Source: Acidimicrobiales bacterium (lineage in GTDB: Bacteria; Actinomycetota; Acidimicrobiia; Acidimicrobiales; CATQHL01). Taken from it: a stretch of 64,000 nucleotides of DNA. Below are positions 12,968 to 62,735 of the stretch, one piece after another. The stretch spans positions 224,464-288,463 of the forward strand of contig OZ241998.1 of the NCBI GenBank assembly GCA_965204655.1. The letters run 5' to 3'. The translations under genes were made by a program, and so were the position numbers. The notes under the pieces are model-generated. The model had not been told where the DNA came from. It saw only the letters and a program-made list of their open reading frames with translations, and did not search any database. The stretch's first letter is position 1. Every line of letters begins with the position of its first letter.

Positions 12968-13042
12968 GCATCGGTGCCCGAGCGGACTAAGGGAGCGGCC
13001 TGCAAAGCCGTCTTTTCGCGGGTTCAAATCCCGCCCGATGCT
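12968..13042 (+). tRNA. tRNA-Cys (anticodon GCA)
   Basis: Acceptor GCATCGG/CCGATGC with U73 discriminator, anticodon loop cuGCAaa, T-arm GCGGGTTCAAATCCCGC. Confidence 0.8.
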
Positions 13043-13109
13043 CTAGAGACATGCCCCCCCAGTCGCACCCCGGGTCGCAGGCCGGGGGATGGGGGCTATC
13101 CTGTTGGTG

Positions 13110-13183
13110 GGGCCGTTAGCTCAGGTGGCCAGAGCACTTGCATGACGCGCAAGGGGTCGGGGGTTCAAGTCCCTCACGGCCCA
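13110..13183 (+). tRNA. tRNA-Val (anticodon GAC)
   Basis: Acceptor GGGCCGT/ACGGCCC, D-arm GCTCAGGTGGCCAGAGC, anticodon loop auGACgc, T-arm GGGGGTTCAAGTCCCTC. Confidence 0.8.
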
Positions 13184-13200
13184 CAATCATTTAAAGGGGG

Positions 13201-13596
13201 TCAGCCCCCGATGTTGCCGGCGATGCGGCCGGCTATCTCTTCATTACTTTTCAGCGCCAGATTTTGGTGGCGGCATATGTCCACAATCGTTCCGATGAAG
13301 AGAAAGCCGATGGTGATTACGTAAAGTAGCCCCAGTCCGACTTGTCCTAAGTAAAACCTTCCCCAGCCCGCTAAACCTAGGAGACCTATAGCGGTCAGGA
13401 GTACAAGAATGAGAGGGTCTTTGCGCTGCGTTTGGTAGTGAGACGCAAAAGAACTTGCTGCTTGTTCCGGCATCGGTTCGAGCAATCCCTGTAATTGATG
13501 AAGTTCCTGCCTACGGAGTTGCGGCATGTGTTTACGCGCATCAGCCATCTCATGCTCCTTTTGAATGCGACTAGCTTTCAGCCAACCATAACACAC
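13201..13596 (-). CDS. TM2-domain small membrane protein, first gene of the lower-GC insertion after tRNA-Val
   Basis: GWGRFYLG motif and two TM helices typical of TM2 (PF05154-like) domains. GC clearly lower than the flanks. Confidence 0.55.
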   Translation of the reverse strand: MCYGWLKASRIQKEHEMADARKHMPQLRRQELHQLQGLLEPMPEQAASSFASHYQTQRKDPLILVLLTAIGLLGLAGWGRFYLGQVGLGLLYVITIGFLFIGTIVDICRHQNLALKSNEEIAGRIAGNIGG

Positions 13597-13753
13597 GCAA
13601 GACTTTGGACGTGCGGCTTCGGGATGCTTGCAACTTCTGTGCCGCTAGGAGGAACGCGTCCCTAGCGGTTTTGGCTGCCTGCTGCCGCTTCGTTTACTCT
13701 TTAAGAATGCGCCGAGTTGTGGGTCGGCATAACCCAACGAAGGGACTGAGTGC

Positions 13754-15382
13754 ATGTCCGCATTGATCGGGAAGCGCCTGGAGTCTCTCTGGTGGCAGCT
13801 GCAGGGCAAGAAGCCCCACATGCCCCATTTCCTGTCGGAAATCCGCCTGCAGGGCATCCGCAGCATTGAGGATATCCGAGTGCGATTTGAGTATCCGGTC
13901 AGCGTCATTGCGGGCGTCAACGCCAGCGGCAAGTCCACGGTGCTATTCGCGGCTGCTTGTGCGTATAAGGTGCCGGGGGCAACTCTCAGAGATTTCGCTC
14001 CTTCAACTCTGTTTCCCGATTACCAGCCCAAGGTGGGGGCACGCGGTGACAGGAGGCGCGAAAATGTATTTGAGTTTGACTACTCAACGCCCCAAGGCCG
14101 ATTATCAATGCGGTGGAGGCGCGCCAAGAGTTGGAACCGCAGTTTCTTCGGGCGTCCTGATGCTACGCAGCCGGAACGTCCGGTCTATCTGAGGACGCTC
14201 AGCAACCTCAGCAACCCGGCCGAGGTTCGCGGAGTGTTGGGCATGTCTCGCTTGCGCTCCGCACCGGCTCAGACGCCCCTGGATGCAACTCAGCTCGAGT
14301 TTGCCCAGCAGATGCTCCCGTTCAGATACTCGGAGGTTGTGGATCTCGTTTGCGACGACAATAGTTTGCTGTTTGCGTCTCCAGAGACCGCCTATGCCAA
14401 TGCCGATGCGGATTTTAGTGACGTACTCGGCAAGAGTTTGTTGTTTGCGTCCCAAGAGAGCGGGGCGGAGTATTCGGAACTTCACATGGCTTCCGGCGAG
14501 CGTGTCCTGCTTCGGCTCTCGCAGGAGATCGCCCAACTCGACGGGGCTCTTGTGCTCATTGACGAGGTGGAAGCCAGCCTTCATCCCTGGGTGCAGCAAC
14601 TTCTTATGCAGCATCTTCAACAACTGGCGCTTCGCCGTAATCTGCAGATAATCGTGACTACCCACAGCCATGTCGTGCTTGATTCGGTGCCCGCAATGGG
14701 TCGCATCTTCTTGGATCTCGACGAGGCGGGCAAGGTCAAGGTGCTCCCACCCCATCGTGACTTGGTTCAAGACGCCCTTTACGGACTTGCAAAAGACACG
14801 CTCAACCTGCTTTGCGAGGACGAAACCGCAGAAGGCATCCTGCAAGGCTTGCTTGAGCATCTTCTCCCGCGGGAAGGAATCCCGCTGGGGTCGGTGAGAG
14901 TAGGGCGGAACACGGGCGCCGACGAGTTCCCGACTCACGCCAAGGCGTTCGGGAAGTTTGACTTGTTGTCGAACTTCGTGTTTGTTTTAGATGGAGACAA
15001 GCGCGACAGCGCCGTGGAACGGAAGATACGTGCGGCAGATGAGAGGCTCAAGGTGCTCTTCCTTCCTGGCAACGACGCCCCGGAGGTCTGGGTGTGGGGC
15101 GTTCTGAAGCAGCGCTGCCGCGAGTGCGCGGAGGAATTGAAACTTGCGCCTGAGCAACTTTCTAGACACCTCGGCCGCCTCGACTCGGTATTCAACTTGG
15201 CCTCCGATACACCCTCCGCAATCGCCAAGAGCAAGCTTCGCAGTCTTGGGGAGGCGCTAAGTGTGGATGCCAGCCACATTTGTCGTGCGACAGCCCGGTT
15301 GGAAGCGGCGAGGAGGGGGAGCAGTATTCAACCTTTGCTTGAGGGTCTCGGAGATGAACTCGCAAAGTGGCGCTCCTCTTGA
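13754..15382 (+). CDS. OLD-family / AAA_21-type ABC ATPase fused to a TOPRIM-like nuclease domain (ATP-dependent endonuclease-like defence protein)
   Basis: Walker A GVNASGKST. Walker B plus OLD signature LVLIDEVEASLHP. C-terminal TOPRIM-like Glu (LLCEDETAEGIL) and DxD (FVLDGDKRD). Confidence 0.7.
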   Translation: MSALIGKRLESLWWQLQGKKPHMPHFLSEIRLQGIRSIEDIRVRFEYPVSVIAGVNASGKSTVLFAAACAYKVPGATLRDFAPSTLFPDYQPKVGARGDRRRENVFEFDYSTPQGRLSMRWRRAKSWNRSFFGRPDATQPERPVYLRTLSNLSNPAEVRGVLGMSRLRSAPAQTPLDATQLEFAQQMLPFRYSEVVDLVCDDNSLLFASPETAYANADADFSDVLGKSLLFASQESGAEYSELHMASGERVLLRLSQEIAQLDGALVLIDEVEASLHPWVQQLLMQHLQQLALRRNLQIIVTTHSHVVLDSVPAMGRIFLDLDEAGKVKVLPPHRDLVQDALYGLAKDTLNLLCEDETAEGILQGLLEHLLPREGIPLGSVRVGRNTGADEFPTHAKAFGKFDLLSNFVFVLDGDKRDSAVERKIRAADERLKVLFLPGNDAPEVWVWGVLKQRCRECAEELKLAPEQLSRHLGRLDSVFNLASDTPSAIAKSKLRSLGEALSVDASHICRATARLEAARRGSSIQPLLEGLGDELAKWRSS

Positions 15383-15758
15383 GAATGCAAGTGGGGGGAG
15401 CCAGAGACGAAACGGCAAGCGGCGAGGGAAAGCAAGCGAAAGCCAGAAAGGCAGACGCAGACGAAGCAGCCTGAGATGAGTGGGCGAAGAAGTAATTACC
15501 TTCCTTAGGGATAGGGTGCAAGGGCGCTTGCGGATAGGGTGAATGCGCTCCTAGCGGCAACCCCGCGAGATTCTCGGTATCGACCTATTGAGGGGATACC
15601 CGCTTCCTTTGACGGCTGTTTGTGGAGTGCCGTCGTTGCTCAATGGGCAAGGCACAGACACGCCTCCGCTTGGCTGCTTGCTCTCCGTCGGACTCGTTAG
15701 TTCCCTCACATAGTGAAGTTCCCCCGCATAGTGACTGCACGGCAGGAAAGGGTGACCG

Positions 15759-16496
15759 ATGATCGAAAAACACAGCGTAGAAGTCGGGGAGTTGACCATC
15801 GAATACAAGCTTGTACGCAGCGAGCGGCGCAAGAAGACCATCTCAGTAAGCGTGGACAGGACAGGGGTGCTGGTGAGAGCGCCCGTCATTACGTCGGACG
15901 AGGAGATCCGCGACTTGGTGATCGGGCGCGCCCGATGGATCGCCGAACGCCTAGCGATTGCTGCCGAGGCGCCTGCGCCGAAACGGCTGGTCAGTGGTGA
16001 GACGCTTCCCTATCTAGGGCGCGATCACTATCTGGAGATACAGCATCACGACCTTCAGGCATCAAAGATCTGGCTTGAAGACGGGCGGATTTGTGTTCGG
16101 ATGCCCCCCGATGGGACGGATGAAGACCGATACGAACGCACTCGCTTGACGATCATGGAGTGGTACAAGGCGCAAGCAGCGGTTCTTTTAACCGACAAGG
16201 TCGCCGAGTGGCTGGGGAGGATGCCTGAGCGCTGGGAAGGCCCCCCGCTCAGGGTGCTAATCCGAAATCAGAAGCGGCGGTGGGGGAGCTGCGCCCTCGA
16301 CGGCACGCTGCGTTTCAACTGGCGCCTGATGATGCTGGATCAGGAACTCATCGACTACGTGGTCGTCCACGAACTAGCCCATCTGAGCATCAAGAACCAC
16401 TCTAAGTATTACTGGTGGCAGGTTGCCCAGGTGTTACCCGATTTTAAAGACCGCCGTTCACGGCTGCGGAAGATGGAGATAGGGCTTCCTTTGTAG
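15759..16496 (+). CDS. DUF45/YgjP-like zinc metallohydrolase (HExxH)
   Basis: RWGSC and the VVHELAHLSIKNHSKYYW motif diagnostic of the YgjP (PF01863) family. Confidence 0.75.
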   Translation: MIEKHSVEVGELTIEYKLVRSERRKKTISVSVDRTGVLVRAPVITSDEEIRDLVIGRARWIAERLAIAAEAPAPKRLVSGETLPYLGRDHYLEIQHHDLQASKIWLEDGRICVRMPPDGTDEDRYERTRLTIMEWYKAQAAVLLTDKVAEWLGRMPERWEGPPLRVLIRNQKRRWGSCALDGTLRFNWRLMMLDQELIDYVVVHELAHLSIKNHSKYYWWQVAQVLPDFKDRRSRLRKMEIGLPL

Positions 16497-16829
16497 AGAC
16501 TTGCTTGCGAGGAATCCTGTGTACCCGCTCGCTCGGCGTGTTGAAACGGACTTGTGGCGTTATGCTAAACCGACGCTTGGCTCCCGTTTCTTAGCTTCCT
16601 TCGGCGTTCAATAACTCCGGCGACTAGTCGGCCGCACGTCGGTTCAAAAACAGACCGACGCACGCAGGAAGCGAACGCGGCAGCCAGGACTGCTTGAACG
16701 TGCAAGCCCGCGCGAAAGAGACGGGCTCGCCTGAGCAGAGCGCTCGTCTGGTAGATTGGGTGCGTCCCTAATTCGGCGACAAGGAAAGTCCTACGGCAAG
16801 AGCATGAGAAAGCAACCCGGCAGGGTCTG

Positions 16830-17873
16830 ATGGCACGAGCACTCAACAAAGTCTCAGGTCTGCTAGCCCGCGATATCGCAGTGGATCTGGGTACGTCCAC
16901 CACTGTCGTCTACATTCGTTCTGCGGGCGTCGTCCTTGAGGAACCTAGCGTGGCGGCGGTTCACGCCAACACCGGTCGGCTGCTTGCGGTGGGCCGTTCC
17001 GCCAAGGAAATGATCGGGCGCACGCCTTCGGGTATCAGGGCAGTTAGACCGCTGAGGGGCGGCACTATCTCCGACTTCAGCGTCTGTGAGAAGATGCTGC
17101 GCTACTTCATCAGGAAGGTGCACAACGGACGCCCAGTCAAACCTCGGATGGTTATTTGTGCTCCCTCGGGAATTACTCCGGTGGAACAGCGAGCTGTTCA
17201 GGAGGTGGCAGAGTACGCGGGCGCCCGCAAGCCGGTCTTCATCATTGAGGAACCCCTGGCTGCAGCCATAGGGGCGGGTATCCGCATCGCCGCAGCGAGA
17301 GGAAGCATGGTCGTTGACATCGGCGGAGGCACGACCGAGATTGCCATCATCTCCTTGGGCGGCATCGTCGTTTCACGCTCCTTCAAGATGGCAGGCGACG
17401 CCTTGGACCGTTCGCTCATAGAGTTCGTAGACAAGGAATACGGCCTCGACATCGGAGAACAGACCGCCGAGGTAGTCAAGACTAAATACAGTTCGGCTTG
17501 GCCGCTGACCGAGGAATTGAACTGCGACATTCTCGGACGCGACACGCGCACCGGCCTGCCGAAGACCGTGACAATTCCCACGACCGAGTTCAGGCAGGCC
17601 ATTCTGAGTCCTCTTAATGAAATCGCTGCAGCCATCCGTACGACGCTCGACGAATCTCCTCCGGAACTAGTAGCAGACATCATGGAGAGCGGAATTCACC
17701 TTGCCGGCGGCGGTTCGCTCTTGATGGGAATGACTGAGTTCTTGACCTCAGAGGTGGGCATTGCCTTCCATTTGGTTAAGAATCCTCGTTACGCAGTTGC
17801 GGTCGGGTCTGGACATTCTCTTGAGGAGTTCTCCACTCTGAAGAGCGTGCTGCTTTCTTCCCTTTCCGAATAA
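16830..17873 (+). CDS. mreB: Rod shape-determining protein MreB (actin-like ATPase)
   Basis: DLGTSTT phosphate-1 motif, DIGGGTTE and the ASKH fold. Followed by mreC and mreD. Confidence 0.9.
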   Translation: MARALNKVSGLLARDIAVDLGTSTTVVYIRSAGVVLEEPSVAAVHANTGRLLAVGRSAKEMIGRTPSGIRAVRPLRGGTISDFSVCEKMLRYFIRKVHNGRPVKPRMVICAPSGITPVEQRAVQEVAEYAGARKPVFIIEEPLAAAIGAGIRIAAARGSMVVDIGGGTTEIAIISLGGIVVSRSFKMAGDALDRSLIEFVDKEYGLDIGEQTAEVVKTKYSSAWPLTEELNCDILGRDTRTGLPKTVTIPTTEFRQAILSPLNEIAAAIRTTLDESPPELVADIMESGIHLAGGGSLLMGMTEFLTSEVGIAFHLVKNPRYAVAVGSGHSLEEFSTLKSVLLSSLSE

Positions 17874-17912
17874 CTTCGGAAAGCCCGGGCGCGGGCGTTT
17901 CGCAACGACGCC

Positions 17913-18737
17913 GTGGCAAACCGCACAGGGGTAACTCGCCTTAAACTCGTAGCTCTCATTCTCTTCCCGATCACGCTCGTGAGTCTGGACGTGAACGATT
18001 TCGCTCCGCTCGAGTGGGGCAAGGATGTTGTGCGTGACGCTCTCTCGCCGGCGATCTCGGGGTTGGGACGCATCACCCGTCCTGTCACCGACGCCTGGAA
18101 GGCCGTCGGTAACTACGACGAACTAGAGAGACAGAACGAGCAACTCAGAGAAGAGTTGGAGGAACTGAGGGGCGCGGAACTCGAGGAGGTGAGCGCCTCG
18201 GTGACGCTGCGGCAGGTGCTCGAAGAGTTGGAGATCACTTACCTGAAGGACATCCCCACCGCCAAGGCGCGGGTCATTCGTCAACTCGGCAACTTTCCTA
18301 GTCTCAACGTAGACATAGACAAGGGATCGTCCTTCGGCATAGAGGTGGGCATGCCCGCCGTCACCAGCGCAGGGCTGGTCGGACGCGTGGTGGAGGTCTC
18401 TCGCACCCAGTCCCGGATACGTCTGATAACGGATTCCGACTTTGAGTTGGGAGTCCGGATAGTGGGTTTCGACACGGTGGCGGTGGCGAAAGGGAGCGGA
18501 GCGGGTCGGACGTTGGTGGTAGGCGACGGCATTCCGCTGTCGCTGCCGGTTGAGCCGGGGATGCTCGTGACGACCAGCGGTATAGAGAACAGCGTGTATC
18601 CCCCAGACATTCCCGTGGGCGTGGTGCAGGACGTGCAGGTGGATCCCAATCTGGATCAGGTGCTCTACCTTCAGCCGACTGCTTCTTTGGATGTGCTCAA
18701 TTTCGTTACGGTTCTCTTATATGAGAACGCTTTGTAA
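17913..18737 (+). CDS. mreC: Rod shape-determining protein MreC
   Basis: N-terminal TM segment, coiled coil (LREELEELRG), C-terminal beta domains. Position after mreB. Confidence 0.75.
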   Translation: MANRTGVTRLKLVALILFPITLVSLDVNDFAPLEWGKDVVRDALSPAISGLGRITRPVTDAWKAVGNYDELERQNEQLREELEELRGAELEEVSASVTLRQVLEELEITYLKDIPTAKARVIRQLGNFPSLNVDIDKGSSFGIEVGMPAVTSAGLVGRVVEVSRTQSRIRLITDSDFELGVRIVGFDTVAVAKGSGAGRTLVVGDGIPLSLPVEPGMLVTTSGIENSVYPPDIPVGVVQDVQVDPNLDQVLYLQPTASLDVLNFVTVLLYENAL

Positions 18738-18825
18738 CTGCGTTCCTCGGAGCGGGGACTTAAGAAGCTTGTTGAGCGGCCTCTGTTTAGCCAGGGAACT
18801 AGAAAAGCTAGGAAAGAACTGAGCA

Positions 18826-19356
18826 GTGAATCGCAGGAAGGTCAAGATCGCTCTGAGAGCGGCTGCCGTGGTGCTTGCGGTGGGCGTGCTTCAGATGGGG
18901 TTTTTCAATGAACTGACGGTTGATGGCCGTGTGTGTGAACCGCTGCTCACGTTTTCGGTGGCCTGCGGTCTGAAGGTTGGGGCGAGAAGGGGCCTGATCA
19001 TCGGCCTGTTCGCGGGATTGCTCTACGACGTGCTGTCGGGCCTCCCGCTCGGATTGGCGACGTTCGCCTACACGTTCATAGCGATAGTTGCAGGCTGGGT
19101 GGGGGAGTACGTGTCAAGAATCTGGTGGGGGCTGACGCCGCCTTTGGTTACCCTCGGCTTGTTTTTCTACGTACTCATAGGAGAGATCTTCGGCGAGGAA
19201 CAGTTTTTCAACTCACGCCTCCCTGCGACGCTCGCTGTGGCAGCTGTCGGTGGTGCTATTCTTGCTCCAGGGATGTACTGGTTGTCCGGCTGGATGTGGG
19301 ATCAGCCCAGTCTCGGTAAATCCGGTTCGCAATCCCCCCATTCGTCAAGGGCATGA
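18826..19356 (+). CDS. mreD: Rod shape-determining protein MreD (polytopic membrane protein)
   Basis: About 176 aa with 5 TM helices, between mreC and pbp2. Confidence 0.65.
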   Translation: MNRRKVKIALRAAAVVLAVGVLQMGFFNELTVDGRVCEPLLTFSVACGLKVGARRGLIIGLFAGLLYDVLSGLPLGLATFAYTFIAIVAGWVGEYVSRIWWGLTPPLVTLGLFFYVLIGEIFGEEQFFNSRLPATLAVAAVGGAILAPGMYWLSGWMWDQPSLGKSGSQSPHSSRA

Positions 19357-21485
19357 GCGAGATAGGAGAATCGGGGCGCTCCACGGGCGGGCGGCCCTCC
19401 GGCAAACGCCTCGACTGGAGGGGTTTGAGCGCTCTGCGCCTCAGTTCTCTCGGCATAGTCGCAATAGGGCTGCTTGCTGCTCTCCTTGTGCGTCTCTGGT
19501 ACCTCCAGGTGGTCGCGTCCGACCAACTGGCGGCAGAAGCCGTCGGCAACATCATCCGCACCGTCTACGAACCGGCCCCTAGAGGCCGAATCTATGACAC
19601 CAAAGGGCGCGAACTAGTGGGGAACAGGGTCGTAAACGTGGTCACTGTGGACGCTTTCGTTCTGCGGGACAGGCTCGGTGCCTCAGGGCGCGAGAAGTTA
19701 GCGCTGGACTTGGCGCGCCAGTTTTCCCGCTCCGGCGTGCTGACGAAGGCTGCAGCGCTGGAGGAGGAGATGGCCAACCCCGCCTACGGCCCGTTCGACA
19801 GCATCCCTCTGGCTTATGGGGTCTCTGACTCGTTCAAGGTCTTTCTCGCCGAACGGAACGAAGAGTTTCCCGGCATCGAAGTGGTGCAGCGCACGGTAAG
19901 GGTCTATCCCTACGGGAGCATTGCCTCCCACGTCTTGGGATACATCGACACCATCAACTCCGAAGAGTTGGAGGCCAGGGAAGATCACCGCAAGTTCTAT
20001 TCGGCGGTGGACGTGATCGGCAAGTCGGGTATCGAGCTTTCGTTCGAGGAGATCCTGCGCGGTGTGCCGGGCAAGCGGAGAATCGAAGTCGACAACGTTG
20101 GTGACGTCGTCCGGGAACTTGACTATTCGCTCCCCGAGCCGGGCACCGACGTCCAGCTGACCATCGACATTGATCTGCAGGCGCTCCTAGAAGACGAACT
20201 CAGGCGGGGGCTCTTTGAAGCCCGCGAACGGCAGGACGAGTCGGTGGAGGATAAGTTCGTAACCTTCAACGCGCCGGCGGGGGTGGGTGTGATCTTGAAT
20301 CCGCAGAACGGCGACGTTCTAGCGATGGCCTCCTATCCCGCCTACGACCCTCGGGAGTTCATAGGAGGGATCAGCGAAGCGAGGTTTCAGGCGCTTGTCG
20401 CCTCGGAAGCCCACGCCCCGCTGAACAATCGCGCCATCCAAGGCGTCTACTCGCCCGGCTCGACGATGAAGCCCATCACTGCGTACGGCGCTCTGTCGAC
20501 GGGGATGATCGGCCCCAATGGATTCTTGCGCGTGGATCAGACCACGCCGGATCTCGGTTATCACGTGCTCGGCGACTGCACTGGGCGCTGCGAGTTCACC
20601 AACCCTGACAGGGCGCCCAACGGAGACGTCGACCTGAGGGTGTCCATCACGGTTTCGAGCGACGTTTACTATTACAAACTCGCCGAGCAGTTCTCCATAC
20701 GCAAAGGTTTTGAAGAGGATCAGGTTCAGCAGACGGCTCGTCAGTTCGGTTTCGGCATGCGAACGGGGATTGCGCTGCCGTACGAAAACGCCGGAATCGT
20801 GCCCGACTCGGAAATAAAACGCGAGCGCCATGAGGCCAATCCAGAGGCGTTTCCCGACCCTGAATGGCGCGCAGGCGACACGCTCAACATCTCCATCGGC
20901 CAGGGCGACCTGGGGGTGAATCCCCTGCAGTTGGCAAACGCTTTCACCGCCTTTGCCAACGGCGGGACGATCTATCAGCCCAACATTGCGCGTGCTACCT
21001 ACGATCCGGTGCGCGGCGAGCCTTCCAACGTCATCGGAAGCCGAGTCTCCTCTTGCGTCTACATGCCGAGCAGCTTTAGCGACCCCATCACCGACGGGAT
21101 GATCGGCGCCATCACCTTGCGCACCAGCGAGCGCATTGGTACCGCCGAGAAGGCGTTCTCGGGCTTTCCTCATGAAGCGTGGCCGGTGGCCGGCAAGACC
21201 GGAACGGTGGAAGTCTCCGGAGGCAAGTCCGACACGGCGGCGTTCGTCGGGTACGGCCCCGTGCCGCGAGCTCAGTACTTGGTGGCCGTCCTGCTTGAGG
21301 AGGCTGGTTTCGGTGGTGAGGCGGCTGCCCCGGTGGTGAGGCGTGTCCTTGAACCCTTGGCTAGAGGGACGCTGCCGGAGGTCAAAGCCGAGATGGAGCG
21401 TCTGGACATGAGCGATCCCCTCCTGGAGGTTCCGCCTCCGGCTGTTTGCCCGGGGGACAGGGGTTTGCTTAGCAGGACGAGGTGA
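19353..21485 (+). CDS. mrdA: Penicillin-binding protein 2 (elongasome transpeptidase)
   Basis: PBP dimerisation domain plus transpeptidase motifs STMK, SxN (SSD), KTGT. Context mreBCD-pbp2-rodA. Confidence 0.85.
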   Translation: MSEIGESGRSTGGRPSGKRLDWRGLSALRLSSLGIVAIGLLAALLVRLWYLQVVASDQLAAEAVGNIIRTVYEPAPRGRIYDTKGRELVGNRVVNVVTVDAFVLRDRLGASGREKLALDLARQFSRSGVLTKAAALEEEMANPAYGPFDSIPLAYGVSDSFKVFLAERNEEFPGIEVVQRTVRVYPYGSIASHVLGYIDTINSEELEAREDHRKFYSAVDVIGKSGIELSFEEILRGVPGKRRIEVDNVGDVVRELDYSLPEPGTDVQLTIDIDLQALLEDELRRGLFEARERQDESVEDKFVTFNAPAGVGVILNPQNGDVLAMASYPAYDPREFIGGISEARFQALVASEAHAPLNNRAIQGVYSPGSTMKPITAYGALSTGMIGPNGFLRVDQTTPDLGYHVLGDCTGRCEFTNPDRAPNGDVDLRVSITVSSDVYYYKLAEQFSIRKGFEEDQVQQTARQFGFGMRTGIALPYENAGIVPDSEIKRERHEANPEAFPDPEWRAGDTLNISIGQGDLGVNPLQLANAFTAFANGGTIYQPNIARATYDPVRGEPSNVIGSRVSSCVYMPSSFSDPITDGMIGAITLRTSERIGTAEKAFSGFPHEAWPVAGKTGTVEVSGGKSDTAAFVGYGPVPRAQYLVAVLLEEAGFGGEAAAPVVRRVLEPLARGTLPEVKAEMERLDMSDPLLEVPPPAVCPGDRGLLSRTR

Positions 21486-53532: not shown

Positions 53533-54612
53533 GTGACGGTAATCGATTACTACGATGTGCTCGGTGTCTCCCCGCAGGCGACCTCGGAGGAGATCAAGAC
53601 CGCCTATCGTCGGTTGGCAAGGGAATACCATCCAGATCGCAACCCAGACGACCCTGAGGCTGAGAAGCGCTTCAGGGAGGTTGCGACTGCGTACGAGGTG
53701 CTGAACGACTCGCAAAAGCGCGCTCACTACGACCGTTTCGGCACGGCGGACTCCGTGTCTGATCCTTTTGATATTTTCTCCACGCTCTTCGGGGGTCTTG
53801 GTTTTGACGTCGACCGCCGAGCCGCATCCAATGTCGGCGAAGACGTCGAAGTTCTGCTTGAGTTGGACTTTGCTGACGCTGTCTTCGGAGGCACTCAAGA
53901 AATCAGTGTGAACCTGCCCGTGCCTTGCGGGGAGTGTGAGGCCACCGGCTCTCAGCCGGGCACCGAGGCGCTCTCGTGCGAGGAGTGTTCCGGCACGGGT
54001 CGTGTGAGGCAACTGACTCAGTCGATCCTAGGGCAGATGATGACCACCGGTCCTTGCAGGCGTTGCAAGGGGACGGGACGTCTAATTCACAACCCGTGCA
54101 GGGCCTGCAGGGGGAGAGGACGGCTCCGAGGCGAACGCACTTATCCGCTCGAGGTTCCTCCAGGGGTGGACAACGATACGATTTTGCGGCTTCCAGGCAA
54201 AGGGGGCGTGGGGCCGGTGGGGGGTGCCTACGGCGACCTGTACGTGACGATAAAGGTGCGCCCCCATCCGGTTTTCCAGCGTGAGAAGTACAACCTCATC
54301 ACCCGTGCGGAGGTCTCTTTTACGCAAGCCGCTCTTGGCGGAATCCTGAAGCTTGACACCCTCGATGGATGCGAGGAGATACGCATCAAGCCGGGTACGC
54401 AGTCCGGCGAGGTCGCCGTTTGTAAGCGCAAGGGAGTTCCGTCTCAGCGGGGAGGCGGCCGCGGTGACCTGATCGTGGAGATCAGGGTTGCTACCCCGAC
54501 TGACCTCGACGACCGCCAGTCGGAACTGTTGCATGAACTGGCGCTTCTGCGCGGCGAGCAGGTCGATGCCGGGCGCAGGCTCAGACGTCTGCGGTCATCT
54601 TTCAAGCCTTAG
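53533..54612 (+). CDS. dnaJ: Chaperone DnaJ (Hsp40)
   Basis: J-domain with HPD ([10 protein letters not shown]). Four CxxCxGxG zinc-finger repeats. Confidence 0.9.
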
Positions 54613-55976
54613 GGCTGGGAGAATGTAGGCAGTTCCCAGGTGCCCTGTCGGTGGACAGCCTCGAGTCGGTCGCACGCGCCGTTGGGGGTTTTCTTGATCC
54701 GGAGGGGAGGTGCCAGTTCTTCCACCAAAGCAGGGGCGAGCGGTTCGTCTTCCGGCCAGGAGTCGAATACGTACACCTTGCCCGAGGCTTCGGCCAGAGC
54801 CAGAGTGGATACCCCGTCGCAGTTCCAGTCCCCCACGAGCAGTTGGTCGTTGGGGCTTCCTACCGGAAAGGGGTCGTCGTTGATCGAGACGAATCCGGCG
54901 CCGACGGTGACCCGCTCGGCGCAGCCGTCCCCGGTGACGTCGAGATATCCAGGAGATACCGGACGGCATTGTTCGTCCTGCGGAGTCAAATGATCGGCTG
55001 CGGCAGCGTTCAGCGGCTGAGTAGTGGCCGCCGCTTCCTCCCGGGAAGGTTCACGTTCAACGTAGGGGGCGTATCCCCCCGTTTCGCCTGTGATCGCATT
55101 GGGTGGGTCGTCTCTTTTCAGGAGTTGCAGGGTCATGAAAGCAAGAGCGAGGAGACCCGCAAGAATTCCTGCTGCCTTCAGCAGGCTGCGGCGCTTCACC
55201 GGGCGGAGGTTCTTGAGGCGGCCTCTAGCCGCGCCCGGCATCGCGTGCCCAGAACTCCTATAGTGCTCTGCCTCTTCAGGGCGGCTTGATTTCGGGCTAG
55301 CGCGCGGGGCGGCGACGTCCTCCACTTCGCTTGGTGAACTTCGTGTTGATGTCTCCCGTCCGGCCAAACTTCGCAACTGACCTTCCAGGTTGGGGGCGGA
55401 GCGCACCCGTCCTTCCGCAGCCGCTTTAGCCACACCCCTTATCCGTTCAAAAAGGCGTTTGTTATGCCGTCGCAACCTCTGTGGGGCGCCGTCGATTACC
55501 TTGAGCAGCGTCTTCCCCAGGGCGGCTATGTCTTTTGCCGCTAGGTCGCTAGACACTCCTGATTTCTCGGTTTTCCTAGCTGAGGAGAAGCTGCAGAGGA
55601 GAGGCTGCTGGGATGCCCCTATGAGTACATGGTCAGAGCAGACGTTCAGGTGAAAGAGGTTTTCCCCATGCAAGTAGGCGAGAGCGGCGGCCAGGGCTTC
55701 AAAGACGGCTAGCAGGTCTTCCGTTCTCCTGGGTTGCCAGGTGCTCAAGGAGTGTCGCCCGGCGTAACGGGTCAGTAAGCGCGGGCCTTCTTCTCCGTCC
55801 TCCAGAACAGCGAGAGAGACCACGCCCGGGTGCTCGAGCTCCCTGAGCAAGTCTGCCTCTCTGCGCAGCGCTGCGGGATCTCCTCCAGTCTTGGCGGTGA
55901 CAAGTTCGCCATTCCAAAGATCTGTCCTAATTTCCATATATTTAGCATATATATAATCATTTTCAATCAAATACAA
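54609..55976 (-). CDS. Membrane-anchored protein-kinase-fold protein, probable pseudokinase, with an extracellular FG-GAP-like C-terminal domain. The likely real start is the ATG at 55937.
   Basis: Kinase-like N-lobe with VAIK-like Lys (LVTAKTGG). Catalytic loop degenerated (HLNVCSDH in place of HRDLKPxN). No DFG. One TM helix. GDWNCDG repeats. Confidence 0.5.
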
Positions 55977-56000
55977 TACTAATGCAGAAAATTAGAACCT

Positions 56001-59000
56001 TCAGATGCTGGAAAATGGATTGGGGGTGGCTGGACGGGTGTCCTTTCCGCCATGAACGGTGGGTTCGCAACACCACTGCCAGCGGAGAGCATCTAGGGGA
56101 TCCAGAACAGACTTGGGCAACCCCAGGATTTCAAGCACAACGGCTTTATCCAGGGCGCGGCGGGTCGGGTCATTCCAAGCCTCATTGGCAGGAAGGAACT
56201 CCTCGGAAGCGAAGTAATTGAAAATGCATCTAGCAGTTGCGATTTCCTTCTCTGACAGGCGACGGGGATCTAGCGTGGGGAGTTCCGGAAGTCGGGAGAT
56301 CGTGATGTTGGCCCGGCCTTGGTGCTGCCGGGTTCCTAGCCACCAGAATCCGATAAGACCGAAAATCGAGTTTGCCCACAGAACAGCGAGGGGCTCCCAG
56401 TCGGGGTTGTCTAGGGTAAAACTCGGCCAAGCAGCTCCACCGATGCTCTTCTCGGGGGTCAAACAAGCCGCTAGTGGCTGAGAATTGAGCCGAAAGTTGC
56501 GAGTGAAATGCAATCGTGATGCCGTTTCCCAGACTTTCGCAGCTAACTTTTTGCAACCTTCACGGGTGCGGCCTTGAGCATCAATTCCAACGAATAAGCG
56601 GGTTTCGCGTAGGGCGTCGTGTCCCCATAGAACGGGGAAGGTGGCTCTCTCGCCGCTAGCGAGAGGGTGGATGTTGAACGGCCCGCGCGGGGAGCCATCC
56701 GAGTTCGTGCCATCAATATCTCTATCAACGAGACCGCGTTTGCCTAGTTCCGCTAAGCACGCCATGGGTATTGGGCAATCCTGTCCGAGACGCGGTAACG
56801 TCAGCGTGCCGGAGTTGAGCCCAAGCGCCGCTTCTGCTACGTCCACTTCCTTTACCTGAGCGCAGCCACCCTCGTCCAAGGGGGCTTGAATGAAGCTTCC
56901 CACTTGTTCCTCACCGATTAGAAGATGCCCTTTTCTGGTGTTGGTTCCCGTGGAATGGATAGCCTTTCCAATCTCCACTGCCTCGGGAATACTCTGAGGG
57001 CGTCTATTCAGGTTCACCCACATCACGAGGTCGTCTGCCCGAGCGCGGTCTTTGCAACTGCGGGTCGCAACCAACAGGGCTTCCGCCATTCCCGTGTCGG
57101 CGGAAAAGGCGCGCTCGGTTGAGCCGGCCGAAGCAATCGTTATCACCGTTACGTCGCTGTATTGAGACGCAATCAGACTGCGTGCTGATTTCCAGGACGC
57201 CCCTCTTGTAAATGCGGCGGGCAGAACCAGGGCGAGTATCCCGCCGGGTTTCACTTTGGAGTGTGCGAGGTCTATGAAGTTGGATGCCAGCCCCGCGTTT
57301 CCATGGCCTGCTCGGGACTTCGGGTACGACTTGTAGATCTTGCGCAGTCTGTCCGACATGGCGCGCTGTTCCTCATCTGTGGTCCCGAATCCTGCGAAAG
57401 AAGGCACGGGTACCCCTGCTGCTTCTGCCCTTGCGTGATTGGTGGGACTAGTGAACGGAGGGTTCATTATCAACAAGTCGGCGCTCTGATGCTCGCAAAC
57501 AGTTTCCGACGCTATTTCGCCTTTACCTGACGCTGCAGTACGCCCGCTGCCCCATAGGGGTCGCGGCGAAAACTCGGAGTCGAGCAGGTCGAGCGACCCT
57601 ACTGAAATTTCCCCCGCAGTTCCGGTTCGCTCACCGTAGGGGAGCAGGTGAACGCAAGTCTGCTGGAAGGTGGTGTCCGGGTGCACGCTCGCGAGCATTG
57701 AGGCGGTGAGGTGCACCGCCGCGGGCATGATGTCTGCGCCGATGAGAACGGACTCCATCATTTTTGCGTGCAGGTCTGCGTCGTCGATTCCTCTCCTGCG
57801 CATCCGCGCCCCGACGCGGTGGTAGACGGCTGAGAGCAGTGCGCCTGTGCCGCACGCTAGGTCTGCGAAACGAAGTGAGGCCAGAGCGGTCTTGAGGCAT
57901 TCCGAGGACTTGACGCGCTCGGTGGCATTCAAGGGTGCTAGGCGGGTGACTGCCAATTCGGCTAGCAGATGAGCGGACGCTGGCAGCGTGTAGAAGGTTG
58001 CCAAGAATTTGCGGTCGCCTATCAATGTGCCAAACATTTGACCGGAGAGGTCGCCGGTAGTGGTGGCCCCCAGACCTAACAGATCGGTGGCCACTGCATT
58101 GAGGTGTGTGATGATTTCGGCAGCCACGCCTGCGGGTACTTCCCGAAGCACGTCCCGTGCCACGGAGAATATTGGCCAGTAATTAATTTCAAGTATTGAA
58201 GCCCAGGTATTGAGGAGTTTCTCGTGGTTGATCAGCCCGTCTGTGGAGCGTCGCAGTTCGTCGGCCGAAGGTCTTAAAATCTCTCCTCTCTCGGAGGCGA
58301 TTGAGTAGTTGAAAACGAGGGCGTTGGTGATTATGGCGCATGCCATGCGCCAAACATCCACCCCTGCTTCTTGATGGAGAGACGCTGCTACGGCGCGCCC
58401 TGCTGAGGTATATGACGATCTCTCCGAAGGGTCGGCGAAGGTTTTGTTCAGCAGGGCTGCCGCGGTCTCCACTCCATCGGCAAATTGCTGAGCCGCGGCT
58501 TCTACAGTCGCTTGGGAGACGGCCGCCCTTTCTATGAAACCGGCAAGGTCATCCAGGCTTCCTGAGATCCAGCCGCTGGCAGGGAAGCGACGTGTGCTGC
58601 CCGGATCACGTGAATGAAGAGAGTGGATGCAGTATTCAAATCTGGGTGCTTGCTCCTCGGAACTGGGCATATCGAGCAGTTCTGTGAGGTGTTTCTGTTC
58701 GGCGCTGCGCAGCGCTTCGGGGATTCTGACTGCAACGGCCTGGTCTACCGGCACTCCCCCGAATTCCGGGGAATAGCGTTCACCCAAGCGGGTGATTGCA
58801 TCCTCTTCCACTTCTCTGGCTGGGTGGTACTCGGTCTCTATGAGCACAGGCCGCCAGCCAGGCGGCCTGGCCACAATGTCTGGCTGCTTAGCCGTCTGCG
58901 CGCTCAGCACGCCAGTGCTCTCGGCCTGCATTCTCCACCCGCTAGTAAACCGCTTGGCTAGGGCTGTGCTTAGACAAGCGTTCAGCGCCTGTTCGGATGT

Positions 59001-59015
59001 TCTTGCTTCTCGCAC
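56001..59015 (-). CDS. Type IIG (Eco57I-like) restriction-modification fusion candidate: N-terminal PD-(D/E)xK-like module plus gamma-class N6-adenine DNA methyltransferase plus a long C-terminal (TRD-like) region. 1004 aa.
   Basis: Motif I FADLACGTGALL then motif IV LIMNPPF (gamma-class order). N-terminal PD-x13-ETE matching Eco57I spacing (PD-x13-EAK) but with K replaced. Size about equal to Eco57I R-M (997 aa). Confidence 0.6.
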   Translation of the reverse strand: MREARTSEQALNACLSTALAKRFTSGWRMQAESTGVLSAQTAKQPDIVARPPGWRPVLIETEYHPAREVEEDAITRLGERYSPEFGGVPVDQAVAVRIPEALRSAEQKHLTELLDMPSSEEQAPRFEYCIHSLHSRDPGSTRRFPASGWISGSLDDLAGFIERAAVSQATVEAAAQQFADGVETAAALLNKTFADPSERSSYTSAGRAVAASLHQEAGVDVWRMACAIITNALVFNYSIASERGEILRPSADELRRSTDGLINHEKLLNTWASILEINYWPIFSVARDVLREVPAGVAAEIITHLNAVATDLLGLGATTTGDLSGQMFGTLIGDRKFLATFYTLPASAHLLAELAVTRLAPLNATERVKSSECLKTALASLRFADLACGTGALLSAVYHRVGARMRRRGIDDADLHAKMMESVLIGADIMPAAVHLTASMLASVHPDTTFQQTCVHLLPYGERTGTAGEISVGSLDLLDSEFSPRPLWGSGRTAASGKGEIASETVCEHQSADLLIMNPPFTSPTNHARAEAAGVPVPSFAGFGTTDEEQRAMSDRLRKIYKSYPKSRAGHGNAGLASNFIDLAHSKVKPGGILALVLPAAFTRGASWKSARSLIASQYSDVTVITIASAGSTERAFSADTGMAEALLVATRSCKDRARADDLVMWVNLNRRPQSIPEAVEIGKAIHSTGTNTRKGHLLIGEEQVGSFIQAPLDEGGCAQVKEVDVAEAALGLNSGTLTLPRLGQDCPIPMACLAELGKRGLVDRDIDGTNSDGSPRGPFNIHPLASGERATFPVLWGHDALRETRLFVGIDAQGRTREGCKKLAAKVWETASRLHFTRNFRLNSQPLAACLTPEKSIGGAAWPSFTLDNPDWEPLAVLWANSIFGLIGFWWLGTRQHQGRANITISRLPELPTLDPRRLSEKEIATARCIFNYFASEEFLPANEAWNDPTRRALDKAVVLEILGLPKSVLDPLDALRWQWCCEPTVHGGKDTRPATPNPFSSI

Positions 59016-59192
59016 AGCCGGGAAACGTCCTTCCTTGCGGGTTGTTACTTTTCCGGTCTTTCCGCCAGATGCCGTCGCTCAAATTAGGTGCAGCCGGCGC
59101 CTAATCGGGCGCTCAAGCGGAACTAAGCATAAAGCAGATCTGAGAAGGAGTCAGGTATTTACGTTAGAGGAAGCGGAAAATATTAAAAAATA

Positions 59193-59423
59193 ATGAAAAT
59201 GTATGGAAACAAGAGCTTGAGGGAATTAGCAGGAACTGGAGAGCATCCTCCTTGGATGCAGGCAGCAGATGAGCAATGGACTTTTTTGTACCGCTGTTAT
59301 AGATTGCTATGTTTTAAGGGCAGTCGAACTTTGGCGGCAAAAAAGTTAATAGCTATTGCTCCAATATATGGATCTAGACGGCACGTATGGAGAAGTCGTA
59401 GAGACACTAAACGCAATAGCTGA
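59193..59423 (+). CDS. Small hypothetical ORF (76 aa) inside the about 45% GC spacer
   Basis: ORF only. Lys/Arg-rich. No recognisable domain. Confidence 0.15.
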   Translation: MKMYGNKSLRELAGTGEHPPWMQAADEQWTFLYRCYRLLCFKGSRTLAAKKLIAIAPIYGSRRHVWRSRRDTKRNS

Positions 59424-59563
59424 GACCGCCGAAGTTGTCATGTCCAATAAAGGAAGCAATCCAGTCGACTCGGGTTTTAGAGCATTTGATTAAATTTTTT
59501 GTGTGCAGAAGATTCAAACAATAGCGCCTGCTAGTGCTGACAAAAAATAATTAGCCGTAACGC

Positions 59564-61184
59564 CTAGAATGCTTTGAGTTGTTTGGAGTCCTCTTGCCCG
59601 GTGAGTGGGTTTACCATTGGGGGCACTTTGGCTGGGCGATTGTCAAAGTACAGGTCGATAGACCAGAGTTGGAGGCGCGGGTAGTCCATTGCGCCGATTT
59701 TGAGATCGGCCATGCCTAGCGCAACTTTTTTAGCCGTGGGGCTTGAAAATGGTTCCAGAGTGATGAAGATACCTGCTGCCGCCTCTTGGTCTTCTATCTC
59801 CCTAGCGAAAGCTTTTACTTGATCAACGTTTGGGACGCCACCCTTCACCTGAGCAAGTAAGAGGGTTGAATCATGATTATCAGGGGTAGTGACAAGGTGC
59901 CCCCTGCCATCTATTCCACCGTCTGCAACTTGTCGGTCGTTTGGCGCGAGGCCGGGGATTCTTGTTATCGCCCATTTTTCAAAGTCAAATGGACGATCTT
60001 TGGCTAAGCGACGGGCTGCGGCGAGATTGACAGGGATGCCGTGAATTGGGAATTCAACACCGGGAAATCTCTCCTTGCGAATAACATCGATAGCAAGAGG
60101 CGAAATGTCAATCCCAACCCAGTCCAGACTTAAATTTCTTGCTGCTTCTATAGTTGTTCCGCAACCACAAAATGGATCTAAGACCAGATTTCCTCTGGCG
60201 GAAGAAGCTTTGATGATTCTTTCAAGCAGCGCGACGGGTTTCTGAGTGGGGTAATCAAGGCTCTCATTATCATTTGTTAAATTGTTTATATCAGTCCATA
60301 AATTTCCAAGTGGCTTGCCCTTGTAGTCTCTTGCATATGACTTCCTCAATGGACGCTTGCCATCTCTCCAGATAATCTCGCCCTTATTGTCCATTTCAAT
60401 CAGCTTTTCTTTTGACACTCGCCATCCCGAGGGATGAGGATTGCTCACCCCCTTGTATTCGTAGCACAAGTTTGGCCGTGCCCCCATTGACGGCTGACGA
60501 AAAAGCGGAGTACCTGTGTTATATCGGCCTCTAGAGTCTTCTTCAGGAAATTTTACCTTCATTTCTTCTTCTGAGAGAATTCTGTATATTCCATTGAACT
60601 GCGATTTCGCAGACTTGCCGTAGAACAGGATGATGTCACAGTCATTTCCGAATGTCTTTGGAGCGTGCTGGCTTCCCTTTGCTCTGCCTGCTGCTCGCTG
60701 CCAGGTGATCTCATTGCGGAATTGCTTCGCTCCGAACACGGCGTCCATTACCGCTTTGAGGTAGTGAGAGGCTGTCGGGTCGCAGTGGAGATAGATGCTG
60801 CCTGTACCTTTTAGTACCCTGTGGCATTCTGCGAGGCGCTCTGCCATGTACGACAGGTATGCCAGCATTCCTGTCTCCCCAAGGGCTATATGTAGCCCCT
60901 AATAACATCGTGAGCAGGGTGGCTCACGGCTTTGCTCAAGCTTTCGACTCTTTGAATGGCTGCTTCGTCCCACTTCCATGTATCGGTGAAAGCTTGTGTT
61001 TGGGCCGTTTTGTCACCCCTGTTACCGAAGAGAATGTTGTAGTTGGCGTTTGAGTTAAAGGGTGGGTCTAGATAGATGAGGTCTACACTCTCAGATTCCC
61101 ACTGCCTTTGGATATCTAAGCAATCTCCGTAGTAAAGACTGTTTCTAGCGGGGAGAGATCCGGGGGGGGGGGGGGGGGGGGCAT
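59564..61184 (-). pseudogene. Beta-class (N4/N6, DPPF...DPFCGCGTT) DNA methyltransferase, companion of the RM fusion. Disrupted as assembled: ATG followed by a C20/G20 tract that is out of frame, an N-terminal fragment (61160-60886) containing LYYGDCL...DLIYLDPPFN, a frameshift at about 60870-60900, and then the main ORF 60868-59564.
   Basis: N-fragment frame gives NSLYYGDCLDIQRQWESESVDLIYLDPPFNSNANYNILFG... and ends in TAG at 60886-60888. The main ORF carries RVLKGTGSIYLH and motif I LDPFCGCGTTIEAA. Eco57I-type systems have a separate MTase of about 540 aa. Confidence 0.6.
61162..61181. repeat. G20 (C20 on the coding strand) homopolymeric tract immediately after the ATG of the beta-MTase. 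Candidate slipped-strand phase-variation switch.
   Basis: Counted 20 consecutive G at 61162-61181, followed by CAT (ATG on the minus strand) at 61182-61184. Confidence 0.8.
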
Positions 61185-61221
61185 TAGATTAGAGACTAGA
61201 TGAAAGCTAGTACTCTTGCGG

Positions 61222-61259
61222 GAATTAAATCGCGCGACTGCAACAATTAAATCGCGCGA
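61222..61259. promoter_or_regulatory. Two exact 16-bp direct repeats (AATTAAATCGCGCGAC) spaced 22 bp apart, 40-75 bp upstream of the beta-MTase ATG. Candidate regulator binding site.
   Basis: Exact repeat at 61222-61237 and 61244-61259, separated by TGCAAC. Lies in the presumed promoter region of the minus-strand MTase. Confidence 0.4.
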
Positions 61260-61466
61260 CAGACCAATTCGTGTGTTGGGGTAGAAATAAAAGGGGGACT
61301 ATACAAATGGCTGCGGTAGCGCCTGGTGTCTTAGACGGGTTCTTGGGGAGGGTGTGTGGTTAACTGGCGGAGAGTTCTGGGAATTCTTCCGTTTTCAAGT
61401 CTGCGATGGTTTGCGGGTGTGCTGAGCCGGACGTGGACGCCCCTGCGACGGGCGGGCGGTGGCGCC

Positions 61467-62735
61467 TCAGCGGTCCTGGATTTTGATGTAATCGCGCTTG
61501 GGGTGACCTACGTAGAGTTGGCGCGGGCGCGCTATGCGGGAGTTCCGCTCCATCATCTCGTTCCAGTGCGCCAGCCAGCCCGAAGTGCGCGGGATAGCAA
61601 ATAGCACGGTGAACATGGTGGTGGGGAAGTTGAGGGCTTGATAGATGAGCCCGGAGTAGAAGTCCACGTTGGGATACAGACGGCGGCTCACGAAGTAGTC
61701 GTCGGCCAAGGCCACTTCCTCAAGCTTGAGGGCGATGTCCAGCAGCGGGTTCTTGCCAACGTGAGCGAAGACGTCGTCTGCGGCCTCCTTGATGATCTTG
61801 GCCCTCGGGTCGTAGTTTTTGTAGACCCTGTGGCCGAAACCCATGAGGCGGGTCTTCCCGCTCTTGACGTCGGAAATGAAGCCGTCCACGTTCTCGAATG
61901 AGCCGATTTCGTTCAGCATCTTCAGCACGGCTTCGTTCGCTCCGCCGTGACGAGGGCCGTACAGCGCCGCACAAGCTGCAGCCACCACCGAGTAGGGGTC
62001 GGCGTGCGAACTCCCCACCACTCTTGCTGTGGTGGTTGAGCAGTTCTGGCTGTGATCGGCGTGCAGGATGAACAAAATATCGAGCGCGCGGCTTATCGCC
62101 GGGTGGCATTCGTAGCGCGGTTCAGCTACACGGAAAATCATAGAAAGGAAGTTCGTGGCGAAGTCCAGATCGTTGTCGGGATAGACGAAAGGCATCCCGA
62201 TAGAGAAGCGGTGGGCGGCGGCGACCATCGTCGGCACTTTGGCGATGAGCCGCACTATCTGGTTTCTCCTGATTTCCGGGTCGTCTACCTGCTTGGCCTC
62301 GGGGTAGAAAGCAGACAGCGCCGCAATTGAGGAGATGAGCATCCCCATCGTGTGAGCGTCGTATCTGAAGGCCTCAATAAAGCGCTTGAGGAAGTTCTCG
62401 TGGATATAGGTGTGGAGGGTGATTTCTTCTTGCCAGGCTTCGTATTCCTGCTTGTTGGGGAGATCACCGTTAAGAAGGAGGTAAGCCACCTCTAGATAGG
62501 TGGAGCGCTCCGCGAGTTGTTCGATGGGGTAACCCCGATAACGCAGGATTCCTTCGCTCCCTACTATCTCAGTGATTGCGCTTTTTCCTATGGAGGTATG
62601 GCTGAAGGACTCGTCAGAGAACCAGATGCCGCCTAGGAGTTTCGCCCACTCTTTGGATTCCACGCCACCGTTTTGGATCGGAATTTCCACGGAACGGCCG
62701 TTCCTGTTGTCTGTGATGGTGATGGACTCGGTCAA
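61467..62735 (-). CDS. gltA: Citrate synthase (type II, hexameric-type)
   Basis: LHADHSQN...GHRVYK..DPR motifs. 422 aa. Confidence 0.9.
   Translation of the reverse strand: MTESITITDNRNGRSVEIPIQNGGVESKEWAKLLGGIWFSDESFSHTSIGKSAITEIVGSEGILRYRGYPIEQLAERSTYLEVAYLLLNGDLPNKQEYEAWQEEITLHTYIHENFLKRFIEAFRYDAHTMGMLISSIAALSAFYPEAKQVDDPEIRRNQIVRLIAKVPTMVAAAHRFSIGMPFVYPDNDLDFATNFLSMIFRVAEPRYECHPAISRALDILFILHADHSQNCSTTTARVVGSSHADPYSVVAAACAALYGPRHGGANEAVLKMLNEIGSFENVDGFISDVKSGKTRLMGFGHRVYKNYDPRAKIIKEAADDVFAHVGKNPLLDIALKLEEVALADDYFVSRRLYPNVDFYSGLIYQALNFPTTMFTVLFAIPRTSGWLAHWNEMMERNSRIARPRQLYVGHPKRDYIKIQDR

Follow-up and report, generated by a model that had tools for sequence, protein, structure and literature searches.

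What connects the three genes that lie between dnaJ and gltA in an Acidimicrobiales genome? The stretch analyzed here (the window) comprises 64,000 nucleotides of contig OZ241998.1 (assembly GCA_965204655.1, positions 224,464 to 288,463), and the three genes share its minus strand: a 1004-amino acid (aa) nuclease-methylase fusion (gene A), a beta-class DNA methylase upstream of it (gene B), and a membrane protein of kinase fold. The original prediction joined them into a horizontally acquired restriction-modification (RM) island built like Eco57I. Its gene inventory was accurate. The open reading frame (ORF) of gene A was confirmed and is of the Type IIG kind by Foldseek; the kinase-fold gene does follow it directly on the same strand, although it lacks catalytic residues and is a pseudokinase; and gene B matches Pfam N6_N4_Mtase (PF01555; E=3e-39, 135.7 bits, cutoff 26.7). 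The odd 5′ end and split that had been reported for gene B correspond to two frame changes, one in a run of 20 C after the ATG (C20) and one in a run of four G (G4). In contrast, the proposed relationship among the genes did not survive. The gltA–dnaJ interval is likely a variable defense locus that holds two unrelated, separately acquired DNA-modification genes, each standing alone. The locus is largely ordinary, with both genes of known kinds, because the "pseudokinase" is an ordinary core gene.

A single Eco57I-like system would consist of the 1004-aa fusion, a companion methylase of ∼540 aa, and the pseudokinase as a new accessory. Eco57I has a companion methylase, and the two proteins resemble Eco57I and M.Eco57I in size (997 and 544 aa). 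Additionally, the three genes share a strand, gene A has a weak Pfam Eco57I match, and there are weak model matches of the kinase to MAD6 and PglW and of the methylase to mad2. However, comparison with related genomes (L002–L006) demonstrated that the three genes are not co-inherited. Gene B is absent from the locus in both sister species, L002 and L003, and the pseudokinase orthologs of L004–L006, at 35–41% identity, adjoin dnaJ with zero restriction genes at the locus. We also inspected the best 80 of at least 569 genome loci of the gene A family, which gave a neighborhood survey of 79 other loci from GTDB species representatives. These loci contain neither partner, save a kinase inside the same genus: within 5 kb of gene A, a kinase occurs only in the window's own genus and a beta-methylase homolog at 0 of 79 loci, with two marginal matches (E about 1e-4). 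When the loci are taken in full, the closest counterpart to the methylase is in L030, where a 62-residue stretch matches at a distance of ∼10 kb. Indeed, no neighbor family of any kind recurs across the 79 loci and their many phyla, the largest neighbor cluster being found at 11.

The three genes also have three compositions and two ages. GC content at third codon positions (GC3) is 0.739±0.035 in 41 background ORFs, 0.638 in the pseudokinase, 0.619 in gene A and 0.499 in gene B. The lower GC predicted relative to dnaJ and gltA thus holds for third positions but fails for raw GC, since gltA (0.569) falls below both gene A (0.583) and the pseudokinase (0.600). Moreover, gene B encodes a beta-class methylase with its own Mrr-like domain, which is unexpected for a companion, and its family is typical of phages and plasmids. 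We consider a single system extremely unlikely and the similarity in sizes a coincidence.

The weak kinase matches do not rescue the connection either. The NCBIfam scores are 26.6 bits for MAD6 (cutoff 460) and 21 bits for PglW (cutoff 990), and they are generic kinase-fold similarity. What the locus has in common with BREX type 2/Pgl (PglW, PglX) and MADS (MAD6, mad2) is a kinase-fold gene adjoining an adenine methylase. Unlike in those systems, the window kinase is dead and remains syntenic with dnaJ regardless of a methylase, and no further BREX or MADS components were found between dnaJ and gltA. A kinase-methylase defense system was rejected on synteny and scores.

What, then, does gene A encode on its own? 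Searches used P0001, which is 98% identical, as a stand-in, an exact look-up of the 1004-aa protein being without match. The predicted structure of the whole protein (predicted local distance difference test, pLDDT, 76; predicted template modeling score, pTM, 0.85) was compared by Foldseek, which returned BpuSI as the top match (E=2e-12) and additionally LlaBIII, DrdV and PglX. In structure it most resembles the chain of a genuine Type IIG enzyme, and gamma-class methylases are among the Foldseek matches. Alignments to BpuSI and PglX span ∼1,090 columns, a figure that counts gaps and is reported without residue ranges; at that length they could extend into the C-terminal region. PADLOC assigned MTase_II (E=1e-9) and REase_MTase_IIG (E=3e-4). 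In Pfam, three models (Eco57I, MTS and MmeI_Mtase) matched below threshold, those of Eco57I and MTS around NPPF; the Eco57I model (PF07669; cutoff 25.3 bits) scored 16.5 on the full-length protein and 19.6 on its middle third. Motif I aligned to BrxX. The N- and C-terminal thirds gave zero Pfam matches, and neither sequence nor profile searches against the PDB with the whole protein or the N-terminal domain found anything significant.

Conservation within the family supports the domain assignments. In a 55-sequence alignment the methylase columns RKFLATFYT, DLACGTG and NPPF are invariant. At the nuclease site, P45-D46 and E60-T61-E62 vary little or not at all throughout the family (E60, T61 and E62 not at all), and E32 and R76 beside the acidic triad are invariant across phyla at ∼50% overall identity. 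The C-terminal region is conserved more evenly than is usual for a specificity domain (majority fraction 0.57–0.78) and closes with a near-invariant family ending, R-x-Q-W-C-x-E-P-x-V-H-G-G-K (aa 978–991; window 56001–56080), which matched no known domain.

Based on this model, gene A is a predicted solitary, single-chain RM enzyme of the Type IIG/IIL kind, an architecture that is directly seen and from which we infer the activity. Such an enzyme would methylate its own asymmetric site and cut unmodified incoming DNA without needing a separate methylase, the C-terminal region presumably recognizing the target. Similar to BpuSI, MmeI and DrdV, it runs from a PD-(D/E)xK nuclease through a helical linker to a gamma-class N6-adenine methylase and a C-terminal domain. 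It is structurally closest to BpuSI and DrdV, and like MmeI and DrdV it is solitary, with no separate methylase. In contrast to Eco57I, it has no companion methylase at any of the 79 loci and stays under the PF07669 cutoff. Three properties set it apart from the known Type IIG/IIL enzymes and weigh against the assignment. It has no significant sequence similarity to any characterized, solved or Pfam-modeled member; the third residue of its nuclease motif is Glu, where the canonical residue is Lys; and the strongly conserved C-terminal part, with its family-specific QWCxEPxVHGG core, is too evenly conserved for a swappable specificity domain. A D…ExE nuclease site with a terminal Glu has a precedent in BamHI.

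These properties would also suit an orphan or regulatory adenine methylase whose non-cutting nuclease-fold domain only binds DNA or regulates. The D…ExE motif in place of ExK, the lack of a sequence-level match among nuclease families and the even conservation over the whole length all fit such a protein, and so do the nuclease-less relatives annotated "N-6 DNA methylase" and the multiple paralogs in single genomes. Yet the invariance of the acidic triad together with E32 and R76 fits a catalytic site, the top structural match is a real Type IIG chain, and gene A neighbors include defense genes. Additionally, it is exactly the nuclease domain that has been lost repeatedly, in L003 and others, the pattern expected of a toxic nuclease. 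We regard a non-cutting orphan methylase as quite improbable and retain the single-chain RM enzyme as the reading for gene A.

The family to which gene A belongs is large and has remained largely unnamed. Its ∼970-aa proteins share ∼50% identity over their full length. A word-indexed search produced more than 2100 matches, and a search of 1.84 billion representatives found 938 clusters at E≤1e-30. Almost none of the listed members has a Pfam domain on record, and the sole source name shown is "hypothetical protein". This amounts to a Type IIG-like family without a Pfam model and with at least ∼940 clusters at 50% identity. Zero relatives were found on viral contigs. Gene A is also solitary in L007–L010, where it stands amid other defense genes. 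Relative to strain L001, synonymous divergence (pS) in gene A is 0.021, the same as in its flanking genes, and the ratio of nonsynonymous to synonymous divergence (pN/pS) is 0.38; at the scale of L001, the gene has therefore been inherited vertically and under constraint. The L003 copy retains residues 331–1003 only and many family representatives start near aa 210–230, which suggests that nuclease loss is recurrent in the family.

Several of the genomes with gene A loci hold 2–4 paralogs. The record titles among the best gene A loci (L012–L090) often point to marine-sponge symbionts of many phyla, among them Ca. Latescibacterota, Ca. Poriferihabitaceae, Ca. Spongiisociaceae, Ca. Synechococcus spongiarum and Ca. 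Palauibacter rhopaloidicola. Within the best 80 of at least 569 matches, the family appears concentrated in sponge-symbiont genomes, and the host of the window is itself probably sponge-associated. An apparent concentration of this kind fits the reported enrichment of restriction systems in sponge symbionts (PMC5649159).

Gene B has a different history. With both frame changes repaired it encodes 540 aa, which align over 96–97% of their length to ∼530-aa homologs at ∼50% identity. DPPF (aa 40–43) precedes FCGCG (F339-x-G-x-G343), both invariant, and the DPPF motif indicates that gene B is probably an N6-methyladenine methylase. The C-terminal part matches Mrr_cat at 23.5–26 bits (cutoff 21). 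Its Mrr-like residues E403, G424-x-D426-G427 and Q446-x-K448 are conserved in 40 cellular homologs, D426, Q446 and K448 without exception; 80 of 80 viral homologs keep D426 and K448, with S or Q at position 446. The domain may be a nuclease, and gene B could then be a reverse-order RM enzyme with the methylase first and the nuclease second. Against this, most viral homologs differ at two of the four Mrr-like motif positions (Q403, S446).

The closest relatives of gene B in architecture are solitary beta-class methylases of phages and plasmids. Like these, it has the DPPF…FxGxG order and matches the chains of CcrM, MboIIA and RsrI, and its family occurs as solitary copies on plasmids and abundantly on viral contigs (449 relatives). 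It differs from M.RsrI, M.MboIIA and the CcrM relatives in the extra C-terminal Mrr_cat domain with a conserved D…QxK, in a ∼140-aa insert between motifs VIII and X, and in the poly-C switch of its sub-lineage. Many of the full-length relatives (L101–L180) lie within ∼2 kb of the end of 37–53 kb viral contigs. One locus, L091:6001–10477, carries three head-to-tail tandem paralogs of the methylase-Mrr_cat family (527, 471 and 482 aa).

Comparison with strain L001 dates the arrival of gene B. Over 59016–61466 (2451 bp) the two strains differ by 2 substitutions plus homopolymer indels, whereas the surrounding 8.5 kb differs by 0.92%; given that flank divergence, the Poisson probability of 2 substitutions is about 4e-8. 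A gene B homolog with 87% nucleotide identity over window 59561–61236 lies in another chromosomal context in L011, with a HIT-family gene on one side and, on the other, an AAA_15/21 ATPase convergent with it, and the L011 similarity stops at 61236, the upstream edge of the gene B module. Just upstream of the gene B start, AATTAAATCGCGCGAC forms a 16-nt direct repeat whose copies are 22 bp apart start to start. Other gene B alleles carry a single AATTAAATCGCGCGAC copy, and a conserved CTAGCTTTCATCTAG comes after the repeat. Gene B is best read as a separate, very recent low-GC insertion. Gene A would be the older resident of the locus and gene B the very recent arrival.

Elsewhere, the poly-C methylase lies between a HIT-family gene and DUF2079 (L098:6001–9466, L099:6001–9233, L100, L011 and L092). 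An AAA_15/21 ATPase of ∼640 aa, resembling AriA, AriAB and GajA, is always convergent with it and sometimes overlaps it; the window copy has no adjoining AAA_15/21 ATPase. The two may form a two-gene module. The AAA_15 gene of L002 and the methylase-side ATPase of L011 were considered as one cassette, which was rejected because the two are unrelated.

Why is gene B split? Its ATG runs directly into C20, where C18 or C21 would be needed to remain in frame. The longest homopolymers in the 64 kb are C20 and then G11, with the rest at most 8, placing C20 far above chance. The G11 run itself (window 7443–7453) is inside a class II ribonucleotide reductase gene (5749–8499). Tract length varies among alleles of gene B. 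L001 has C17, L011 has C9, L099 and L100 have C10 and L098 has C11, all out of frame like the C20 of the window. The C11 alleles of L092 and L093, in contrast, are in frame and encode 538 aa (MTPPPDRALPSKNSLYYGDC...). The natural in-frame allele, P0256 (538 aa), begins MTPPPD… at the equivalent ATG. Because an in-frame 538-aa allele exists, the ATG ahead of the poly-C tract is therefore the real start. C9, C10 and C11 occur in alleles of one 90%-identity protein cluster, and a poly-proline N-terminus was found in 0 of 39 more distant homologs. From these alleles, we take the tract for a contingency (phase-variation) repeat, in which slippage just after the ATG would gate gene B expression.

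The second frame change is of another sort. G4 is private to the window genome, with L001, L011 and L099 all having G5. A 434-aa gene call in L001 is due solely to the out-of-frame poly-C, L001 having G5 by direct alignment. Because C20 is out of frame and G4 adds a private −1 frameshift, gene B is silent in the window genome and is probably a fresh pseudogene; G4 is either a new inactivating mutation or an assembly error.

Two points count against this interpretation of gene B. Assembly errors could account for the homopolymer lengths, C17 and C20 above all, and for G4 versus G5, and one in-frame allele among six distinct alleles fits a decaying gene as well as a switch. Taken further, the first point would mean that gene B is not a pseudogene, that the G4 run and the exact poly-C length reflect faulty assembly or a minority state, and that part of the population makes the 540-aa protein. 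Long-read assemblies err mostly in homopolymers. Both defects of gene B are in homopolymers, each one base short of the in-frame C21 or G5, while L001 has G5 and an in-frame allele occurs naturally. However, comparison of the window with L001 over 11 kb revealed, beyond the 3-nt poly-C difference, two single-base indels and no other frameshifted gene, which indicates that indel errors are generally rare. Additionally, five of the six distinct alleles are out of frame. An intact gene B in part of the population is a possible but unlikely explanation, and we favor a fresh pseudogene.

The closest precedent for the gene B tract is Campylobacter jejuni cj0031, a phase-variable Type IIG gene under the control of a poly-G tract (PMC4889913). 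As in cj0031-type genes, a restriction-type methylase gene has a long G/C homopolymer inside its 5′ coding sequence, the tract length varies among near-identical alleles, and both in-frame and out-of-frame alleles exist. In contrast to those genes, gene B resides in an uncultured, high-GC member of the Acidimicrobiales and not in a host-adapted pathogen, its switching within a population and any regulatory effect are putative, its product joins a beta-class methylase to a C-terminal Mrr-like domain, and the window copy bears a second frameshift that does not look reversible.

The third gene belongs to neither of these stories. The pseudokinase matches Pfam PK_Tyr_Ser-Thr (PF07714) at 27.2 bits (cutoff 23.1). 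The active site is degenerate in 11 of 11 orthologs. HLN or HRS stands for HRD, so that the aspartate is gone; xxH takes the place of the catalytic-loop asparagine, C-S/G-F-S replaces DFG, and a glycine-rich loop is absent. Since the fold model passes its threshold but the catalytic residues are gone, the protein is a pseudokinase. It has ten detectable homologs only, all of which carry a membrane segment and, at the C terminus, an FG-GAP-like domain (DVTGDGCAE…GDWxCDG), and it is convergent with dnaJ-hrcA-lepA in every genome recovered. Because it stays beside dnaJ even where restriction genes are missing, it is a core gene rather than an RM partner or island cargo. From this synteny, we read it as a core gene restricted to this lineage, which delimits the variable region on one side. 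Weighing against this, it lies 63 bp downstream of gene A on the same strand in three genomes, its GC3 is low, and read-through transcription from gene A into it could occur. The claim of a horizontally acquired island accordingly stands, by synteny and GC3, for the segment from gltA to the pseudokinase and falls for the pseudokinase itself.

That segment has been remodeled repeatedly. L002 has an intact gene A copy next to gltA and, at L002:13029–17679, a split low-GC (0.40) AAA_15 gene followed by a frameshifted, internally deleted second gene A copy that adjoins the pseudokinase. In L003 (L003:7902–9944, which is L045) the nuclease and linker of gene A have been cleanly deleted. The order in L006 is gltA, M16 peptidase, FAD oxidoreductase, pseudokinase, dnaJ. 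These arrangements point to the interval from gltA to pseudokinase-dnaJ as a defense-gene turnover hotspot in a small Acidimicrobiales clade, and the gltA–pseudokinase junction offers a handy marker locus to follow that turnover.

The main value of this analysis is a correction: adjacency on one strand and suggestive sizes do not make a system. Synteny in relatives tells the core pseudokinase apart from a restriction gene of long standing and from a methylase that was inserted very recently. Beyond this, gene B is likely, on the evidence of its alleles, a phase-variable methylase in an uncultured actinobacterium, although the novelty is modest. We know of no description of phase variation of this kind in uncultured, sponge-associated actinobacteria. 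With natural in-frame and out-of-frame poly-C alleles at hand, phase variation can be tested beyond pathogens. A stronger claim would make gene B a self-contained phase-variable RM switch or the 1004-aa family a community-wide restriction barrier, and we consider it improbable. If true for gene B, the poly-C tract would be a phase-variable epigenetic or defense switch in an uncultured actinobacterium. The 1004-aa family could be a restriction enzyme shared horizontally across many phyla of sponge symbionts, and if so it would act as a community-wide barrier against foreign DNA.

Table 1. Layout of the dnaJ–gltA interval and features of its genes (window coordinates).
Feature	Position	Strand	Remark
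dnaJ	53533–54612	plus	
Pseudokinase, core gene adjoining the island	ORF 54609–55976 (455 aa); gene 54609–55937	minus	Ortholog starts at M14
AT-rich gap, 63 bp, GC 0.21	55938–56000		From stop of 1004-aa gene to pseudokinase start
Gene A, predicted 1004-aa single-chain RM gene, Type IIG/IIL kind, intact	56001–59015	minus	
Gene A, C-terminal region, aa 661–1004	56001–57035	minus	Presumed target recognition
Gene A, gamma-class N6-adenine methylase core, ∼aa 340–660	57036–57998	minus	RKFLATFYT; motif I D385-L-A-C-G-T-G391; motif IV N518-P-P-F521
Gene A, N-terminal PD-(D/E)xK nuclease-fold domain, aa 1–168	58512–59015	minus	Candidate catalytic D46, E60, E62
AT-rich spacer, 548 bp, GC 0.445	59016–59563		In species-only DNA between gltA and 1004-aa gene
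Gene B, beta-class methylase with Mrr-like domain, whole gene	59564–61184	minus	
Gene B, 3′ ORF, 434 aa	59564–60868	minus	Motifs V–VIII, FxGxG, Mrr_cat
Gene B, 5′ part	60869–61184	minus	Other frame than 3′ ORF; ATG 61182–61184, DPPF 61057–61068; from three-frame translation
Gene B, G4 run with −1 frameshift	60896–60899	minus	
Gene B, poly-C tract C20	61162–61181	minus	Straight after ATG
Direct repeat, two perfect copies of AATTAAATCGCGCGAC	61223–61260		Upstream edge of transferred methylase module
gltA	61467–62735	minus	

The two AT-rich spacers (Table 1) had been taken for the outer bounds of the island. Their AT-richness was confirmed, but both separate genes inside the segment. The 548-bp spacer has no similarity to L002, L003, L011 or L007, as seen by tblastx for L002, L007 and L011, and contains broken plus-strand ORF pieces with zero Pfam matches. 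A search of 54000–62000 against Rfam gave zero matches, and in a promoter and terminator scan the site count was not above that of shuffled sequence, with none called in either spacer. Lastly, a block of ORFs elsewhere in the window (13000–19400) has a GC of 0.58–0.59 and a GC3 of 0.66–0.72, both under the window average, and may be another acquired or atypical segment.

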